A stretch of DNA of 64,000 bases. It comes from Alphaproteobacteria bacterium. Lineage in GTDB: Bacteria > Pseudomonadota > Alphaproteobacteria > RF32 > CAG-239. Location of the stretch: positions 187,142 to 251,141 of the forward strand of contig JAFUBQ010000003.1 of the NCBI GenBank assembly GCA_017460085.1. The letters run 5' to 3'. Below, one piece after another: positions 5,336 to 63,901 of this stretch (positions are counted from its first letter, which is position 1; the number at the start of each line of letters is the position of its first letter). A program made the position numbers and the translations under genes. The notes under the pieces are model-generated. The model worked only from the letters and a program-made list of their open reading frames with translations. It was not told the origin of the DNA and did no database searches.

Positions 5336-5379
5336 AAATATATGGCTCGTTTTTTTTACTTGACATTGTTTTATATATA

Positions 5380-5394
5380 GAACTAAACTAGAAC
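5380..5394 (+). promoter_or_regulatory. LexA operator (alphaproteobacterial SOS box, GAAC-N7-GAAC direct repeat)
   Basis: GAACTAAACTAGAAC lies 18 nt upstream of the lexA ATG, with a TTGACA hexamer at 5360-5365 upstream of it. Confidence 0.6.
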
Positions 5395-5411
5395 AAATGT
5401 AAGGAGAAAAA

Positions 5412-6068
5412 ATGTTAACGCAAAAACAGTATAATTTATTGATGTTCATCAATAAGGTAAATCGTGAAACAGGTAGTTGCCCTTCTTTTGATGAAATGAA
5501 AGACGCGGTTGGATTGAAGTCAAAATCTGGAATTCACGCCTTAATCAGTTCTTTGGAAGAACGTAATTTTATTCGACGTATTCCACATAAAGCACGGGCA
5601 TTGGAAGTGGTGAGAATGCCACGCTTTAAACCGCATGCAATTATGGAAGAAGAAAAAAAACGCGAAGAAGCTTTGCAAAATGCTAATGCAATAATACCTC
5701 TTTATGGCAAAATTGCTGCCGGCACGCCAATTGAAGCTATTGCTGATGGAACTGAGACTGTTTCTGTTCCCTTTAATATGGTTGCTCTTGGGCAATATTA
5801 TGCGCTCAAAATTGAGGGTGATTCAATGATAGAAGCCGGAATTATGGATGGAGATACGGCAATTATTCGTAAGCAGGAACAAGCAGATAATGGGAAAATA
5901 GTGGTTGCTTTGGTTGATAATAACGAGGCAACGCTGAAAATTCTGAAAAAAGAAAATTCTTTGGTTCATTTAATTCCGTGTAATAAAGACTATAAGGTGA
6001 GAACATTGCCGTCAGAACGCGTGAAAATTCAGGGTATTTTATCCGGAATAATTCGGCAATATAAATGA
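5412..6068 (+). CDS. lexA: LexA repressor
   Basis: 218 aa with an N-terminal winged HTH and a C-terminal S24 peptidase domain (Ala-Gly cleavage region, Ser/Lys dyad context GDSM...K). Confidence 0.9.
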   Translation: MLTQKQYNLLMFINKVNRETGSCPSFDEMKDAVGLKSKSGIHALISSLEERNFIRRIPHKARALEVVRMPRFKPHAIMEEEKKREEALQNANAIIPLYGKIAAGTPIEAIADGTETVSVPFNMVALGQYYALKIEGDSMIEAGIMDGDTAIIRKQEQADNGKIVVALVDNNEATLKILKKENSLVHLIPCNKDYKVRTLPSERVKIQGILSGIIRQYK

Positions 6069-7287: not shown

Positions 7288-7755
7288 ATGATAAAAAAAG
7301 TAAGTAAAAAAAATGCGGTAAAAGAAAATAAAGCAACTATTGTTGAGAGTAGTAACACTACAGCCCATGTTTTGGGTGATGCTAAAATTGCCGTTGTAGA
7401 TGTGCAATTTTTGGTTAATCAAACGCCGTCTGTTTTAGCTTTGCGCGCAGAACAACAGCAAAATGCATCGATTATTCAAAATTGGATTAATGGTGTTAAT
7501 AGCCAGCTTAGCCAAATTGCAGACCAAAACACTCGTAATGCAACGGCACAACAATATCAAATTGAGCTGAATAAGCGTCAACAAATGCTGCAAAGTCAAT
7601 ATGCTATGAAAATTCAGGCAATTGATGCTGAGCTTTCAAAATTGATTTCTGATGTGGCAAATGAGAAAAAATTAGATTATGTTTTTGCTAAAGGTATGGT
7701 TGTTTTTGGCGGTACCGATATTACCGAAGATGTAGCAAAACTTTTGAAAAAGTAG
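7288..7755 (+). CDS. OmpH/Skp-family chaperone-like protein, copy 2 (tandem paralogue)
   Basis: 155 aa with the same C-terminal motif, DYVFAKGMVVFGGTDIT. 12-nt gap from copy 1. Confidence 0.65.
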   Translation: MIKKVSKKNAVKENKATIVESSNTTAHVLGDAKIAVVDVQFLVNQTPSVLALRAEQQQNASIIQNWINGVNSQLSQIADQNTRNATAQQYQIELNKRQQMLQSQYAMKIQAIDAELSKLISDVANEKKLDYVFAKGMVVFGGTDITEDVAKLLKK

Positions 7756-7775
7756 GTTTTTTAATAACTCCTCCC

Positions 7776-7858
7776 GGCATTGCTGAAGCGTTTGGTTTGG
7801 CAATGCCTTTTTAGTATAAAAAATCCGCAGAATTATGTTCCTGCGGATTTCTTTTATT
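7776..7858 (+). terminator. Two tandem rho-independent terminators after the skp-like pair
   Basis: First: GGCATTGC...GCAATGCC followed by TTTTT. Second: ATCCGCAG-N10-CTGCGGAT followed by TTCTTTT. Confidence 0.6.
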
Positions 7859-7950
7859 GGCTTGACCTAAAATGATACCACCGGCGTAAGCCGGTGGAGT
7901 TTCATAAAGCAAGCCAACGGTCAAATTTCCGGTTAAGCTCTGCTTGTTGC

Positions 7951-58213: not shown

Positions 58214-58723
58214 ATGTTGAGATTTTTATGCATAGTGAGCGCTTTAGTTTTAACCTTTGCCACAACAGCATCGGCCGCACAGCCGCAAGTTTTAAGCGAA
58301 TCCGGAGATTGGACTGCATGGACTTACAGCGATGGAGGAAATTTGATTTGCTATATGTCATCAACCCCGAAAAAAGATGAGGGGAAATACACTAAGCGCG
58401 GAGATATATATGTTATTATTACGCACCGTCCGGCAGAAAAATCGTTTGATGAGGTAAGTTTTATTGCCGGATATCAATTTAAATCAGGTGCGCCGATGAC
58501 TATTAAAATCGGTAACAAAACTTTCAAAAATACCTTTACTGAAGGTGATAAAGCATGGATGGTCAGCGCCACCGAAGATAAAAATTTAATTGCTGAAATG
58601 AAGCGCGGCAGCCGTATGATTGTTGATGGTGTATCAAGCCGCGGCACTGCCACCAAAGATACTTATTCGCTTAAAGGTTTTACTTCGGCGTATAATACCA
58701 TTACGGCTAAATGCAAAAAATAA
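58214..58723 (+). CDS. Invasion-associated locus B (IalB)-family periplasmic protein
   Basis: Signal peptide ...ASA. Size and motif spacing are typical of IalB/PF06776. Confidence 0.45.
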   Translation: MLRFLCIVSALVLTFATTASAAQPQVLSESGDWTAWTYSDGGNLICYMSSTPKKDEGKYTKRGDIYVIITHRPAEKSFDEVSFIAGYQFKSGAPMTIKIGNKTFKNTFTEGDKAWMVSATEDKNLIAEMKRGSRMIVDGVSSRGTATKDTYSLKGFTSAYNTITAKCKK

Positions 58724-59794: not shown

Positions 59795-60109
59795 TTATTT
59801 ATGAGATTCTATCCACGATAATAGGGTAGATTCGGTGTTTAATCCCACTTTTGTATCAACTTGTTTTCCGTCTTTAAACAGGAACAAAGTAGGGATACTA
59901 CGAATGCCGAATTGGCTGGCAACTTGCGGCGAATCATCAACATTCATTTTATAAACTTTAACATCGCTGAGTTGGCTGTCAATTGACTCCAAAATTGGCC
60001 CCAGTTGACGACACGGACCGCACCATTCGGCCCAAAAATCTACTAAAACTAGACCTTTTGAATTTAATACATTTTCTGAAAATTGGCTGTCTGTTAACGG
60101 CTGCGTCAT
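59795..60109 (-). CDS. trxA: Thioredoxin
   Basis: WAEWCGPCR active site. Start MTQPLTD with AAGGAG RBS; the track ORF is extended. Confidence 0.85.
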   Translation of the reverse strand: MTQPLTDSQFSENVLNSKGLVLVDFWAEWCGPCRQLGPILESIDSQLSDVKVYKMNVDDSPQVASQFGIRSIPTLFLFKDGKQVDTKVGLNTESTLLSWIESHK

Positions 60110-60571
60110 TTTTTTCTCCTTTATATCCTTTATATATGTTAAAACCGTAAGCAATATATAAGTTGCTTTTTTATAGTATTAAAGGTTCTTTTGAAAAATA
60201 CAATACTTTTTTATAGATATGCTAACTTTGGCACATAAGTATAAAGCACTATAAATATAAAAAGATGTTAAAGGTTTGGCTTTATCTACTTATATTATAT
60301 ATAATATCGGAATGCTCTGCTGGATTTTATATGGCATCTATCTGCATTCTGCACAAATGATTATATTTAACAGTATTTCGTTTATTTTTTCTTCAATCAT
60401 TTTATATATGATTATAACACAGAAAAAGTAGCTTTCTTATATTTTTTGCTTGCTAATAAAATAATTTTTTGTTACAATATAGACAAATGGATAAAAAGTG
60501 CAATTTTTTGGTTGAGCAGAATATTCATTCAGAGCCAGAGGTGGTTTTAATTTTGCGCGGGAGTGATGAAA

Positions 60572-61813
60572 ATGAGCGAGTTACAGGAAAAAAGAGATTA
60601 TTATCCGGATAGGTCACTGAAATCAGTGTATTTTGTAGATGAGCAAGGAAGAAAACAAGGTAATTTAAGAAAATATAAAGAAAATTCTTCAGAACCTGAA
60701 TATATAGAAACTTACGTTGATAATAAAAGAACAAAAATAGCTTATGCCAATGGGGAATATGAAACATTTGATGAAAATGGCAATATCTTGCATAAAAAAC
60801 GTGTGGAAAGTTTCAGTTTCTTTGAAACAGGTAAAAAAATAATTACTGATATGTCATATAAAGATGAAAAAGAATGGACTGGGACTAAAGAAAAAGTAAA
60901 ATTGTCAGGATCGATGCTTTGGCCTGTATCTCACGAAAAATTTGAGTTACTTGAAGGCAAAATGCATGGTGAGTATAAATATTACTCAGTAGATAATGAA
61001 AAATATTCAGAAACAGCACATTTTGATAATGGTATTTTGCATGGATCGTATAACTGCGGTAGATTTCCGCCTAAGTTCTTAAATTTGGAAAAATTGGGGG
61101 TTAATTTAAGTAAAATACCTCAACTTTGCAAGAAACAGGGACATCACGGTATGTATTTCAGTGGTTGGGGTGTTATAAATGGTTATTTTGATAAAGGAAT
61201 TTTTAATGGAGAAGTTCGAGTTGGAGCAAATTGTGAAAGCAGAAGAAGTGTTGATAGTAAGGAAATAACTTATAAAATTATAGATAATCAATTAGCAGAA
61301 ATAAAATACAAGGGTAATACAATCAGAAAATACGACCAAGGAAATGAAATTTATAGACTGACAAAGAATGAAGAAATAAATCAACCACTAAATGGTCAAT
61401 GCTTTAAGAAAAAAAGATGGTTTGAAGAAATAAATTACCCAAGAGGATGGAAAGATACAATCTTAGAAGAATGGGAGCAAAAAGACGGTAAAAAGCATGG
61501 CTCTGCTAAAAAATATAATGAAAAAGGTTGGTTGGAAGTAGAAGCACAATATAAAAATGGTTTAAAACACGGATATGAAACCAAATATAACAGTGATGGA
61601 ACGATTGCTTCGCAGAAATATTACGAAAACGGCGTGAATTGCACAATGGTGCATAAGGCCTTGAAAAAGGTGTGGAACAAAGTAGCCTCTAAGCGGATTG
61701 AGAAAGAAAAAGCCATTGAGGCCAAAACCGGCGTTAAAACGCGTTTGCCGAAGATGAGTAAAGGCGCTAAAATTGCCGCTATGGTCAAGGAAAGCATCGG
61801 GCTGTCAAAGTAA
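60572..61813 (+). CDS. MORN-variant repeat protein (YwqK-like 'antitoxin/immunity' family), low GC, probably foreign
   Basis: Repeated G-x-(K/L)HG-x-(Y/E)-x-x-Y-x-(N/D)G units. Body is about 32% GC with AGA/ATA/GGA codons; the last 60 codons or so are about 48% GC. Confidence 0.55.
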   Translation: MSELQEKRDYYPDRSLKSVYFVDEQGRKQGNLRKYKENSSEPEYIETYVDNKRTKIAYANGEYETFDENGNILHKKRVESFSFFETGKKIITDMSYKDEKEWTGTKEKVKLSGSMLWPVSHEKFELLEGKMHGEYKYYSVDNEKYSETAHFDNGILHGSYNCGRFPPKFLNLEKLGVNLSKIPQLCKKQGHHGMYFSGWGVINGYFDKGIFNGEVRVGANCESRRSVDSKEITYKIIDNQLAEIKYKGNTIRKYDQGNEIYRLTKNEEINQPLNGQCFKKKRWFEEINYPRGWKDTILEEWEQKDGKKHGSAKKYNEKGWLEVEAQYKNGLKHGYETKYNSDGTIASQKYYENGVNCTMVHKALKKVWNKVASKRIEKEKAIEAKTGVKTRLPKMSKGAKIAAMVKESIGLSK

Positions 61814-61837: not shown

Positions 61838-61866
61838 CAAAAAAGAAAGCCTGTATAATAACAGGC
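61838..61866. terminator. Bidirectional intrinsic terminator between the MORN gene and parE
   Basis: GAAAGCCTGT-ATAATA-ACAGGCTTTC flanked by A-runs and T-runs. Confidence 0.7.
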
Positions 61867-61873
61867 TTTCTTC

Positions 61874-63901
61874 TTAAATATCCAAATTATCCACGAACTT
61901 GGCGCGTTCGATGATGAACTTAAAGCGCTGCTCAGGGTCTTTTCCCATTAAACGTTCCACCTGCCGGCGGGTTTCAAAATCTTCCGCCCTGCCTTCGTCG
62001 GTTGAGGTGTTCGGAATCATCACCCGCAGCAAAATACGGTTGTTTTTATCCATAGTTGTTTCTTTAAGCTGCGTTGGGCTCATCTCGCCTAAACCTTTGA
62101 ATCGGCTGATATCCGGTTTAGTGTTGCCCTTAACGACTTTAGCTAAAATCTTGTCTTTTTCTTCGTCATCAAGCGCGTAATAGTTCTTACCGCCCGCCAC
62201 AATTTTATACAGCGGCGGCGTAGCAATATACAAATGCCCGTTTTCTATCAGCTTTGGCATATGTTGATAGAAAAATGTCATCAACAGCGAGGTAATGTGT
62301 GCGCCGTCAACATCGGCATCGGTCATGATGATAATCTTTTCATAGCGCAGATTGTCTTCTTTATAATCGTCTTTAACACCGCAACCGAGCGCCTCTATCA
62401 TATCTTTAATTTCCTGATTTTGCCCGATGCGTTCCACCGAAGCACTGGCAACGTTCAAAATTTTGCCGCGCAAAGGCAAAATGGCCTGCGTTACGCGGTC
62501 ACGCCCCTGTTTGGCTGAACCGCCGGCAGAATCACCCTCAACAATAAAAATTTCCGTATCTTCGGCAGCTGCCTGCGAACAATCGGCTAATTTCCCCGGC
62601 AAGCGTAATCGCTTAGTCGGGCTTTTACGCGCCTGCGCTTTTTCTTCTTTTTTCTTTTTACGCGCTTCGGCACGGTCAATAACATATTCCACCAAAGCTT
62701 TGGCATTTTCTACATCGCTGGAAAGCCAGTGGTCAAATGAATCTTTTACCGCTGTTTCTACCAATTTAATGGCCTTAGTTGATGTCAGTTTATCTTTGGT
62801 TTGTCCTTGAAATTGCGGGTCTGTAATAAACACTGAAAGCATCAGGCACGCATCGCTCAAAAAATCTTCCGCCGTGGCATTGGCAATTTTTTTATAACCG
62901 GCCATATCGCCATATTCTTTTAAGCCGCGCAATAATGCTGAGCGAAAACCGGCTTCATGCGTGCCGCCGGCAGGGGTAATCACTGTGTTGCAATAAGAAT
63001 ATGCAAAGCCGTTTTCATCAACCGGCCATGTAATTGCCCATTCTACCCGTCCTTCATTATTAGCCATTTCTTGTTCGCCGGTGAATGGCGTGCGGTTAAT
63101 GGTGCTGCGTTCGCCAAGCTGCAAATTCAAAAAGTCTGCCACACCGTTCGGAAAGTTCAGCTCATCATTAAGCGGCGTGGAATCGCCTTCGCTAATCAGT
63201 TCTGCCGCGCAGTTCCAATTTATTTTTACCCCCTTGAACAAAAAGGCTTTAGAACGCGCCATGCGATATACACGGTTTGGAACAAAGGTGCTGTTGCCTT
63301 CAAAAATTTCAGCATCTGGTTTGAATGTAATCGAAGTGCCGCGGCGGTTTGGACAATTACCGATAAATTCCAGCTTGGTTAGCGGTTTGCCGCGTGAATA
63401 TTCTTGCCGATAGAGTTTTTTATCACGCGCCACTTCGACAACCAGTTTTTCTGCCAAAGCATTAACCACCGAAAGGCCTACACCGTGCAGACCGCCGGAA
63501 ACTTTATATGCTCCGCCGCCGAATTTGCCGCCGGAATGAAGCGTGGTTAAAATGACCTCAAGGGCAGAAGTCCCCGGATATTTCGGGTGTTCATCAATTG
63601 GAATACCGCGGCCGTTATCGGTAATGGTAACCGTGCCGTCTGCATTCATGGTCACATCAATATGGTTGGCATAGCCTGCAACCGCTTCGTCCATGGAATT
63701 ATCCAATATTTCAGCCACCAAATGGTGCATTGCCTGAATATCGGTGCCGCCGATATACATACCCGGCCGATGCCGCACCGGCTCTAGGCCTTCAAGCACT
63801 TCAATATCTCGCGCCGAATATTCAGCCTTTGCGCTGATTGACGATGTATTGTTCACGGGTTCAAATAAATCTTCTGCCATAGCTGCCTCAAAATGTTTCA
63901 A
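61874..63901 (-). CDS. parE: DNA topoisomerase IV subunit B
   Basis: 675 aa. GHKL ATPase, TOPRIM (EGDSAGG), and no GyrB-type insertion. Confidence 0.85.
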   Translation of the reverse strand: MKHFEAAMAEDLFEPVNNTSSISAKAEYSARDIEVLEGLEPVRHRPGMYIGGTDIQAMHHLVAEILDNSMDEAVAGYANHIDVTMNADGTVTITDNGRGIPIDEHPKYPGTSALEVILTTLHSGGKFGGGAYKVSGGLHGVGLSVVNALAEKLVVEVARDKKLYRQEYSRGKPLTKLEFIGNCPNRRGTSITFKPDAEIFEGNSTFVPNRVYRMARSKAFLFKGVKINWNCAAELISEGDSTPLNDELNFPNGVADFLNLQLGERSTINRTPFTGEQEMANNEGRVEWAITWPVDENGFAYSYCNTVITPAGGTHEAGFRSALLRGLKEYGDMAGYKKIANATAEDFLSDACLMLSVFITDPQFQGQTKDKLTSTKAIKLVETAVKDSFDHWLSSDVENAKALVEYVIDRAEARKKKKEEKAQARKSPTKRLRLPGKLADCSQAAAEDTEIFIVEGDSAGGSAKQGRDRVTQAILPLRGKILNVASASVERIGQNQEIKDMIEALGCGVKDDYKEDNLRYEKIIIMTDADVDGAHITSLLMTFFYQHMPKLIENGHLYIATPPLYKIVAGGKNYYALDDEEKDKILAKVVKGNTKPDISRFKGLGEMSPTQLKETTMDKNNRILLRVMIPNTSTDEGRAEDFETRRQVERLMGKDPEQRFKFIIERAKFVDNLDI

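Follow-up and report, generated by a model that had tools for sequence, protein, structure and literature searches.

The locus between trxA and parE of Alphaproteobacteria bacterium (assembly GCA_017460085.1, contig JAFUBQ010000003.1) raises the question of whether its AT-rich DNA arrived as a foreign insertion or belongs to the chromosome that carries it. The locus lies within the 64,000-nucleotide (nt) stretch of that contig that we analyzed, referred to here as the window, and holds a small hydrophobic open reading frame (ORF) followed by a gene with MORN-type repeats. A first-pass annotation, made from the sequence alone, had favored a foreign origin, describing a low-GC island with a possible toxin-like membrane peptide and a MORN/YwqK-like gene, taken as an orphan immunity gene or a novel use of the repeat, whose 3' tail suggested an in-frame fusion. 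We arrive at a different reading, to which we assign a probability of roughly 0.7, namely that the region consists of a pseudogene fragment of a SemiSWEET transporter gene and a native, rare MORN-repeat gene that is diversified by recombination.

Alleles of the MORN-repeat gene

The window was compared with L086, a 180-kb metagenome scaffold from a near-conspecific organism (parE ~96.5-96.7% identical to the window parE at the nucleotide level), and with L095 and L096, two assemblies of a single study that derive from two further sample accessions. The two ends of the MORN-repeat gene are well conserved in these relatives: positions 60539-60661 are 97% identical to L086, and positions 61481-61812 are 92% identical to L086, the 3' module being 100% identical in L096. 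Over the 819 nt that lie between the conserved ends (60662-61480), nucleotide similarity between the window and L086 was not detectable, and over their whole length the two proteins share 39% identity. At a second conserved locus, where the gene order PBP5-tmk-holB-tatD-MBL-DHHA1 is followed by a MORN-family gene, we found four different alleles, of 417, 463, 518 and 598 amino acids (aa). The 5-kb flanks of L088 and L091 are 98.7% identical and the flanks of L082 and L093 are 94.3% identical, yet the middles of the gene have no nucleotide similarity in either pair; the tails of L091 and L093 are 98% identical with flanks that are merely 79% identical. Compared with the window, L096 carries a patch at codons 18-51 in which 19 codons are changed (9 synonymously and 10 non-synonymously) and one indel is present, and which, in an alignment of 15 family sequences, largely resembles allele P0002; trxA, parE and the tail are all 100% identical between the two. 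Taken at the level of sequence, these comparisons show that homologous recombination, both inside and across species of the clade, replaces the middle by allele exchange and short-tract mosaicism.

The last 60 codons or so had been described as an unstructured tail acquired at an insertion boundary. In the AlphaFold model, two helices are predicted in this part of the protein (61643-61729 and 61760-61798, which are residues 361-389 and 400-412 of the 416-aa form), so that the description as unstructured was not borne out, and the tail has a net charge of +10.8 over 64 aa. The proposed fusion is refuted by the distribution of the tail. The same tail is found at the same locus in L086, in alleles at the second conserved locus and at three one-off loci, and an exhaustive phmmer search with the tail only returned 21 cluster representatives in 1.84 billion proteins. 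In 21 of 21 the match reached the C-terminus or stopped just a few residues short of it, and nearly all had MORN-like bodies; in each family member, conservation extends to the final residue. An identical tail type ends members with entirely different bodies (356-605 aa, the length range of the family), and the best-conserved part of the 15-member alignment is the last ~110 residues, which comprise two to three MORN_2 repeats and then NGVNCT...KRIEKEKAIEAETGVKTRLPKMSKGAK..GLSK. Third-codon-position identity of the tail is 0.34-0.6 between distant alleles, with the peptide retained; because synonymous sites have diverged while the peptide was kept, the tail is conserved by selection at the protein level, and in our reading the first ~30 and the last ~110 codons are both kept constant by such selection. 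On the same figures, we rejected constraint on the DNA itself (RNA structure or an overlapping gene). An antisense hydrophobic ORF of 58 aa does lie under the tail (61621-61797), but every allele has long open stretches on the antisense strand, in several frames, and these are expected opposite K/E-rich codons. As a separate observation, one 151-aa protein (P0031) has an N-terminal P-loop segment, IALVYGKNGSGNTTIS, joined directly to the family tail, and by eye it resembles AAA_13/PrrC-like ATPases. The gene behind this protein may be a chimera or a truncated copy, and the arrangement hints that recombination can attach the tail to other bodies.

That the region is AT-rich and deviates in composition was confirmed. 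The spacer as first delimited (60155-60562, 408 nt) has 25.7% GC, as compared with 39.2% for the whole window, and the values for the ORF body (60563-61619) and the tail (61620-61813, the last 194 nt) are 31.2% and 45.4%. The bin from 60001 to 61000 (29.6% GC) is the lowest of 64 1-kb bins, the others ranging from 34.1% to 46.6%. Some particulars of the first-pass annotation need correction. Because the true starts are the trxA ATG at 60109 and the MORN gene ATG at 60572, the non-coding gap between the two genes is 60110-60571, or 462 nt, rather than 408 nt. Inspection of the sequence places a ribosome-binding site, GGAG (60116-60119), 6 nt before the trxA start; that of the MORN gene, GGGAG (60559-60563), is 8 nt before its ATG. 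The homologues all begin with MSELQ, and gene callers give 413/414 aa in L095 and L096. A GC content of 42-45% had been stated for the flanking genes, which does not hold for trxA, measured at 37.8%. Among the codons called foreign, AGA makes up 11 of the 16 Arg codons of the MORN gene as against 9% across 58 other window ORFs (binomial estimate from the counts, ~1e-8) and ATA makes up 43% of Ile codons as against 22%, so that these two excesses stand, whereas that of GGA (31% of Gly codons as against 22%) is weak.

GC content at third codon positions (GC3) rises from 0.205 in the middle of the gene to 0.594 in its last 64 codons. Over the whole gene, GC is 0.334 and GC3 is 0.278, which is at the low edge of the window genes (whole-gene GC3 of the other ORFs, 0.19-0.49) and not an outlier. 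A low-GC3 middle (0.15-0.23) is present in all nine alleles, and a higher-GC3 tail (0.33-0.59) recurs in seven of the nine, at five kinds of locus. Therefore, the composition step is a family trait and not the scar of a local insertion. The foreign flavor of the region has a real basis in that the variable core is exchanged among related lineages, but it does not come from insertion of an island at this site.

The assignment to MORN repeats passed narrowly, with 32.4 bits against a gathering threshold of 29.6 for Pfam MORN_2 (PF07661) and two repeats matched at residues 311-355. Other alleles score 17-23 bits, under the cut-off, and only 2 of ~13 hairpins are recognized by Pfam. The AlphaFold model (pLDDT 87.4) has ~26 strands arranged as hairpins over residues 8-358, followed by the two helices. 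Foldseek, at a probability of 1.00, matched MORN1 of Plasmodium and Toxoplasma, junctophilin and radial-spoke MORN proteins, with the low TM-scores that long flexible repeat arrays are expected to give; it also matched the single-layer or hairpin-repeat sheets of OspA and Rhs. In a profile search of solved structures, only the MORN region of SET7/9 was matched. From these models, ~13 beta-hairpins of the protein are predicted to form an elongated sheet, with a conserved, strongly basic two-helix C-terminal tail as its cap. The protein matches at 100% identity MBQ9034776.1, which is listed as a hypothetical protein from an uncultured Alphaproteobacteria metagenome-assembled genome (MAG), and the homologues all come from metagenome or MAG records.

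The truncated SemiSWEET gene

The 39-aa hydrophobic ORF reported in the spacer (60312-60431) is present and extends to 51 aa from a TTG at 60276. The 51-aa frame matched positions 29-74 of the 76-position NCBIfam profile SemiSWEET_2 (E-value, 1.8e-9; 37.6 bits, where the cut-off is 80) and also Pfam MtN3_slv (E-value, 9e-4), both profiles being matched over their C-terminal two-thirds only. In L086, positions 5379-5630 encode an intact 83-aa PQ-loop SemiSWEET with the motif FLPQ, after which come the MORN-family gene and the convergent parE. Window positions 60261-60431 are identical to codons 28-83 of this L086 gene at 55 of 56 aa and 169 of 171 nt. This identity with residues 28-83 of an intact transporter refutes the suggestion that the ORF encodes a toxin-like membrane peptide. 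SemiSWEET proteins need three helices and dimerize. The window fragment resembles these three-transmembrane (3-TM) PQ-loop transporters in its match to residues 28-83 and to the SemiSWEET and MtN3 profiles, and it differs from them in having neither TM1 nor the PQ motif and in scoring far under the cut-off. It is, therefore, classed as a pseudogene fragment and not as a full 3-TM member of the family. An in-frame TAA at 60258 lies just 5' of it.

Upstream of the fragment, we detected no residual similarity between 60110-60260 and codons 1-27 of the L086 SemiSWEET gene plus its upstream DNA (local score of 15.0 against a shuffle mean of 15.6, p = 0.63). One candidate explanation, that the 5' part of the gene had decayed in place, came from the string 'LAHKYKAL*I*KD', which by eye resembled a mutated PQ-loop, and was rejected on this shuffle test. 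Because similarity ends abruptly at 60260/60261, we conclude that the gene was cut at a rearrangement breakpoint without decay in place. The trxA/SemiSWEET junction is reproduced in both L095 and L096, and its presence in L096, a second sample, led us to reject an assembly chimera. As judged from these comparisons, 60261-60431 is a dead SemiSWEET fragment whose first 27 codons were lost at the rearrangement that brought trxA alongside.

A survey of the 80 closest parE loci in species-representative genomes, all of them metagenome bins and most labeled Alphaproteobacteria from rumen, gut or fecal samples, bears on the other side of the region. In none of the 80 does trxA, a SemiSWEET gene or a MORN gene lie beside parE. 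For most of these genomes, nucleotide similarity to the window breaks off at the parE stop codon (61874) or a few bases away from it, and the genes downstream vary. The 3' side of parE is, on this sequence evidence, a recurrent rearrangement boundary in the clade. The synteny of trxA and parE, which the first-pass annotation had proposed as a check, was examined in the same survey, and gene order around parE was too fluid to be informative; the loci that did prove informative came from exact matches to homologous proteins.

A leader RNA in relatives

In five genomes with a MORN-family gene (L086, L082, L088, L091 and L093), ~220 nt directly 5' of the ribosome-binding site lie between two copies of AGGTGGTT, of which the window has a single copy. 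A covariance model built on the 3' 162 nt of this leader found no leader in the window, where the single AGGTGGTT marks the place from which it is missing, and the remaining 5' untranslated region of the window gene has no significant fold (z = -0.43). The leader is 90-91% identical between L086 and the genomes with the DHHA1 locus, has a fold with z = -4.6, and ends in a hairpin and a U-run. A search of 1.4 Mb of related loci with the covariance model identified 13 further copies. Of 14 copies checked (these 13 and a pilin-associated copy in L023), 13 have an ORF of at least 60 aa within 15-36 nt downstream; the exception is that in L019, which is followed by a short frame. The downstream genes encode prepilin-type proteins, GT2-like glycosyltransferases (assigned by eye), small helix-turn-helix (HTH)-like proteins and a putative secreted Cys-rich protein. 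Compensatory changes were found at 37 of 47 base pairs and 93% of cells were paired as against ~40% in slid controls, in an alignment that was fitted to the model. No Rfam family matched the leader, and sub-threshold terminator-type matches were the only ones obtained for it and for the spacer and terminator site of the window. We regard the leader as a candidate new class of cis-regulatory RNA. The window MORN gene, as its upstream sequence suggests, is probably expressed without leader control; a candidate promoter, TTGCTA-17-TACAAT with an upstream TG, lies at 60450-60478 and is a consensus match only.

Coordinates of features in the window and of leader copies in related loci (window positions unless a locus is named)
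Feature	Position	Strand	Basis
trxA (104 aa), left boundary of the gap	59795..60109	-	Pfam Thioredoxin, E 2e-31; 104 aa also in L095, L096
AT-rich trxA upstream region, ending at rearrangement breakpoint 60260/60261	60110..60260	.	100% identical in L095, L096
5'-truncated SemiSWEET pseudogene, codons 28-83 and stop, TM2-TM3 only	60261..60431	+	Profile matches; comparison with L086
Conserved intergenic DNA with candidate promoter	60432..60546	+	Window 60261-60546 97% identical to L086 5460-5746
Leader-loss scar, single AGGTGGTT copy	60539..60546	+	Alignments to L086, L082, L088, L091, L093
MORN-repeat family gene (413 aa)	60572..61813	+	Homologue starts, Pfam MORN_2, AlphaFold, Foldseek
Conserved 5' module, first ~30 codons, MSELQEKRDYYPDRSLKSVYFVDEQGRKQG	60572..60661	+	Near-invariant columns in 15-sequence alignment
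Hypervariable AT-rich middle, GC 0.30, GC3 0.205	60662..61480	+	Allele comparisons
Conserved 3' module: MORN_2 repeat (61493-61558), second adjacent repeat, basic tail	61481..61813	+	Comparison with L086, L096
Bidirectional terminator hairpin, convergent MORN gene/parE	61843..61872	.	RNA fold
parE (668 aa from MAEDLF)	61874..63880	-	NCBIfam parE_Gneg, 789 bits; 668 aa in L086, L095, L096
Leader copies, MORN loci	L086 5748-5967; L082, L088, L091, L093 ~5750-5967		Alignment
Leader copies in L023	15340-15503; 16726-16926	-	
Leader copy in L037	9548-9692	-	
Leader copy in L077	7152-7281	-	
Leader copy in L004	2932-3078	+	
Leader copies in L038	12351-12460 (-); 6589-6699 (+)		
Leader copy in L021	7889-8018	-	
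Leader copy in L080	16467-16592	-	
Leader copies in L039, L011, L019, L036, L027			

The terminator hairpin has a folding energy of -17.7 kcal/mol on the plus strand and -20.7 kcal/mol on the minus strand (z = -7.1 and -6.8). In L086, the interval from the MORN stop to the parE stop (7330-7940) contains approximately two tandem ~225-nt repeats (GTCATCCTGAGGGCTTTACGCCCGTAAGGATCT...) and a related GTCATTCCGAGTGAGCGAAGCAACGAGGAATC unit. By its look, the ~225-nt repeat is a small repetitive extragenic element; one further match was found, in L004, and it is missing from the window, in which the MORN-parE gap is 60 nt. Just upstream of parE, the Rfam rpsB small RNA (RF01815) scores above its gathering threshold at L023 9730-9826(-) and L037 8428-8533(-), a position whose counterpart in the window would lie past the window end (>64000). 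Farther to the left, an IalB family lipoprotein-like gene (58214-58723; Pfam E-value, 2e-14) lies upstream of rlmN, and many relatives keep IalB and rlmN paired, including some in which the pair has moved with respect to parE.

Island, toxin, immunity or export

The neighbors of the window MORN gene are trxA and parE, and at nine other distinct loci the family gene has housekeeping neighbors only. No toxin, secretion, mobility, defense, phage or plasmid gene lies beside it at the ten distinct loci examined, in agreement with the earlier statement that no toxin gene is adjacent. Three alleles searched against the PADLOC and PHROGs profiles matched 0 families at E <= 0.1, and the protein matched no NCBIfam model, that of YwqK included, at E <= 1. 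No relative was found on viral contigs, and plasmids yielded a single match, to one 51-aa MORN_2 repeat. We conclude that the MORN gene is inherited with the chromosome and is confined to this group of gut and rumen Alphaproteobacteria.

A recent low-GC island, inserted between trxA and parE and fused at its 3' end to resident DNA, would account for the lowest GC content in the window and for the deviant Arg and Ile codons, and the unconserved gene order around parE in the 80 related species is also compatible with it. We nevertheless hold it to be extremely improbable. A gene of the same family occupies the same site in L086, L095 and L096, in L086 with the same tail and between SemiSWEET and parE; the tail is family-wide, which already removes the fusion; neither an integrase nor a tRNA-flanking structure nor a boundary repeat was seen at the locus; there was no phage match, and the plasmid match covers one repeat. 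The homologues at conserved loci adjoin housekeeping genes typical of gut and rumen Alphaproteobacteria, and the locus does not classify as a genomic island. It is likewise very improbable that the 39/51-aa ORF was kept after truncation as a functional small membrane protein or toxin. Its frame is open, with the two nucleotide differences from the intact L086 gene noted above, and it is conserved in L095 and L096, but the near-identity is uninformative on selection because it is expected at such divergence (parE, 96.5%). The ORF corresponds exactly to the TM2-TM3 portion of the transporter, no good ribosome-binding site was seen by eye before the TTG at 60276 or the ATG at 60312, and between L096 and the window the remnant differs at 3 of 171 nt as against 0 of 2,007 nt in parE.

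Several points weigh against our preferred reading of a SemiSWEET fragment beside a native, recombining gene. The genomes compared at near-conspecific distance are metagenome assemblies. One of them, L095, matches the window at 100% identity and may represent a second assembly of the same sample, and for the window/L086 pair the sole flanking gene that could be compared is parE (2 kb). The family gene occurs in five genomic contexts, so some mobility of a leader-plus-gene unit is possible. If the repeat region were a spacer-like stretch under relaxed constraint, the same pattern of hypervariability could result, and the numbers of synonymous and non-synonymous changes in the L096 patch mark it as imported sequence without showing positive selection. 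The GC3 of the tail (0.59) is above the whole-gene GC3 of every window ORF and is not firmly explained.

What the protein does is best approached through its architecture. The constant N-terminal hairpins, together with the C-terminal repeats and basic helices, probably tether the protein to one invariable partner or site, and the swappable hairpins would then form a variable recognition or binding face that diversifying selection acts on. Either GC-biased conversion during recombination or stronger selection could have raised GC3 in the conserved ends. Two concrete versions of this scheme are immunity against the toxins of competitors and export through a C-terminal signal. The broadest form of the idea, which we consider unlikely, is that the MORN-tail family is an unrecognized class of recombination-diversified recognition proteins, acting in immunity or defense or exported to face the host or phages. 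In most lineages the leader, which the gene has in common with type IV pilin-like, glycosyltransferase and small HTH genes, would then switch its expression and define a riboswitch or antitermination regulon particular to the clade and devoted to variable surface and accessory functions; the window allele would have been freed from it by a precise deletion of the leader. Flagellin offers a parallel, having conserved termini and a hypervariable center and exchanging alleles by homologous recombination. The constant ends of the window family and the occurrence of very different alleles at one locus in near-identical genomes resemble this arrangement; the fold, on the other hand, is unrelated, and there is no evidence in the window family for surface exposure or filament assembly.

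According to the immunity version, the gene is an orphan YwqK-type gene acting against LXG, Rhs or type VI secretion system-type toxins of competitors, and its middle tracks toxin diversity. MORN_2 repeats do build the proteins named 'YwqK family antitoxin' at NCBI (P0025 and the plasmid match), and hypervariability at the strain level with allele exchange across species is typical of immunity repertoires; the repeat unit and strain-level variability are also what the window protein has in common with YwqK of B. subtilis, the immunity partner of the LXG toxin YwqJ. The window protein is, however, 2-3 times the size of YwqK, with additional conserved termini. YwqK-named proteins align to only 12-14% of the query, that is, to one or two repeat units, leaving the conserved N-terminus and the helical tail unaligned, and the absence of NCBIfam and PADLOC matches and the housekeeping contexts without a toxin neighbor at all ten loci also speak against a member of that family. 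The orphan-immunity assignment made by the first-pass annotation is, accordingly, unsupported, and we judge this function improbable.

The export version, in which the basic tail is a type I or type IV secretion-like secretion or targeting signal and the hairpins face the host, phages or other bacteria, also seems unlikely to us. In its favor are the location of the strongly basic tail at the extreme C-terminus in all representatives, the resemblance of conserved ends and a variable middle to surface antigens, and the leader that relatives have in common with prepilin-type, glycosyltransferase and putative secreted Cys-rich protein genes. Against it, inspection of the sequence and of the predicted secondary structure by eye revealed neither a signal peptide nor a transmembrane segment, and secretion-system genes are adjacent in no locus examined. 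This tail hardly varies, moreover, whereas the C-terminal secretion signals that are known show little sequence conservation. A further point in favor of export is that the expanded family of MORN2 proteins in Fusobacterium, to which no function has been assigned, is reported in secretomes and outer-membrane vesicles; most of these proteins are reported to have signal peptides and to cluster with autotransporters (bioRxiv 10.1101/534297). The window family is like them in its Y-x-x-G-x-x-x-G beta-hairpin repeats and its occurrence in host-associated gut or oral bacteria, and unlike them in having no evident signal peptide, in standing alone among housekeeping genes, and in having a private conserved N-terminus as well as a basic helical tail that is seen nowhere else.

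In annotation terms, what looked like an island containing a toxin-like peptide and a fused gene is now a pseudogene fragment and a native, fast-recombining gene, which removes a false lead. The gene itself belongs to a rare, uncharacterized MORN-repeat family, with tail-bearing members in 21 clusters among 1.84 billion representatives. Cassette-like loci such as this one are usually signs of an interface at which a bacterium meets phages, competitors or its host.

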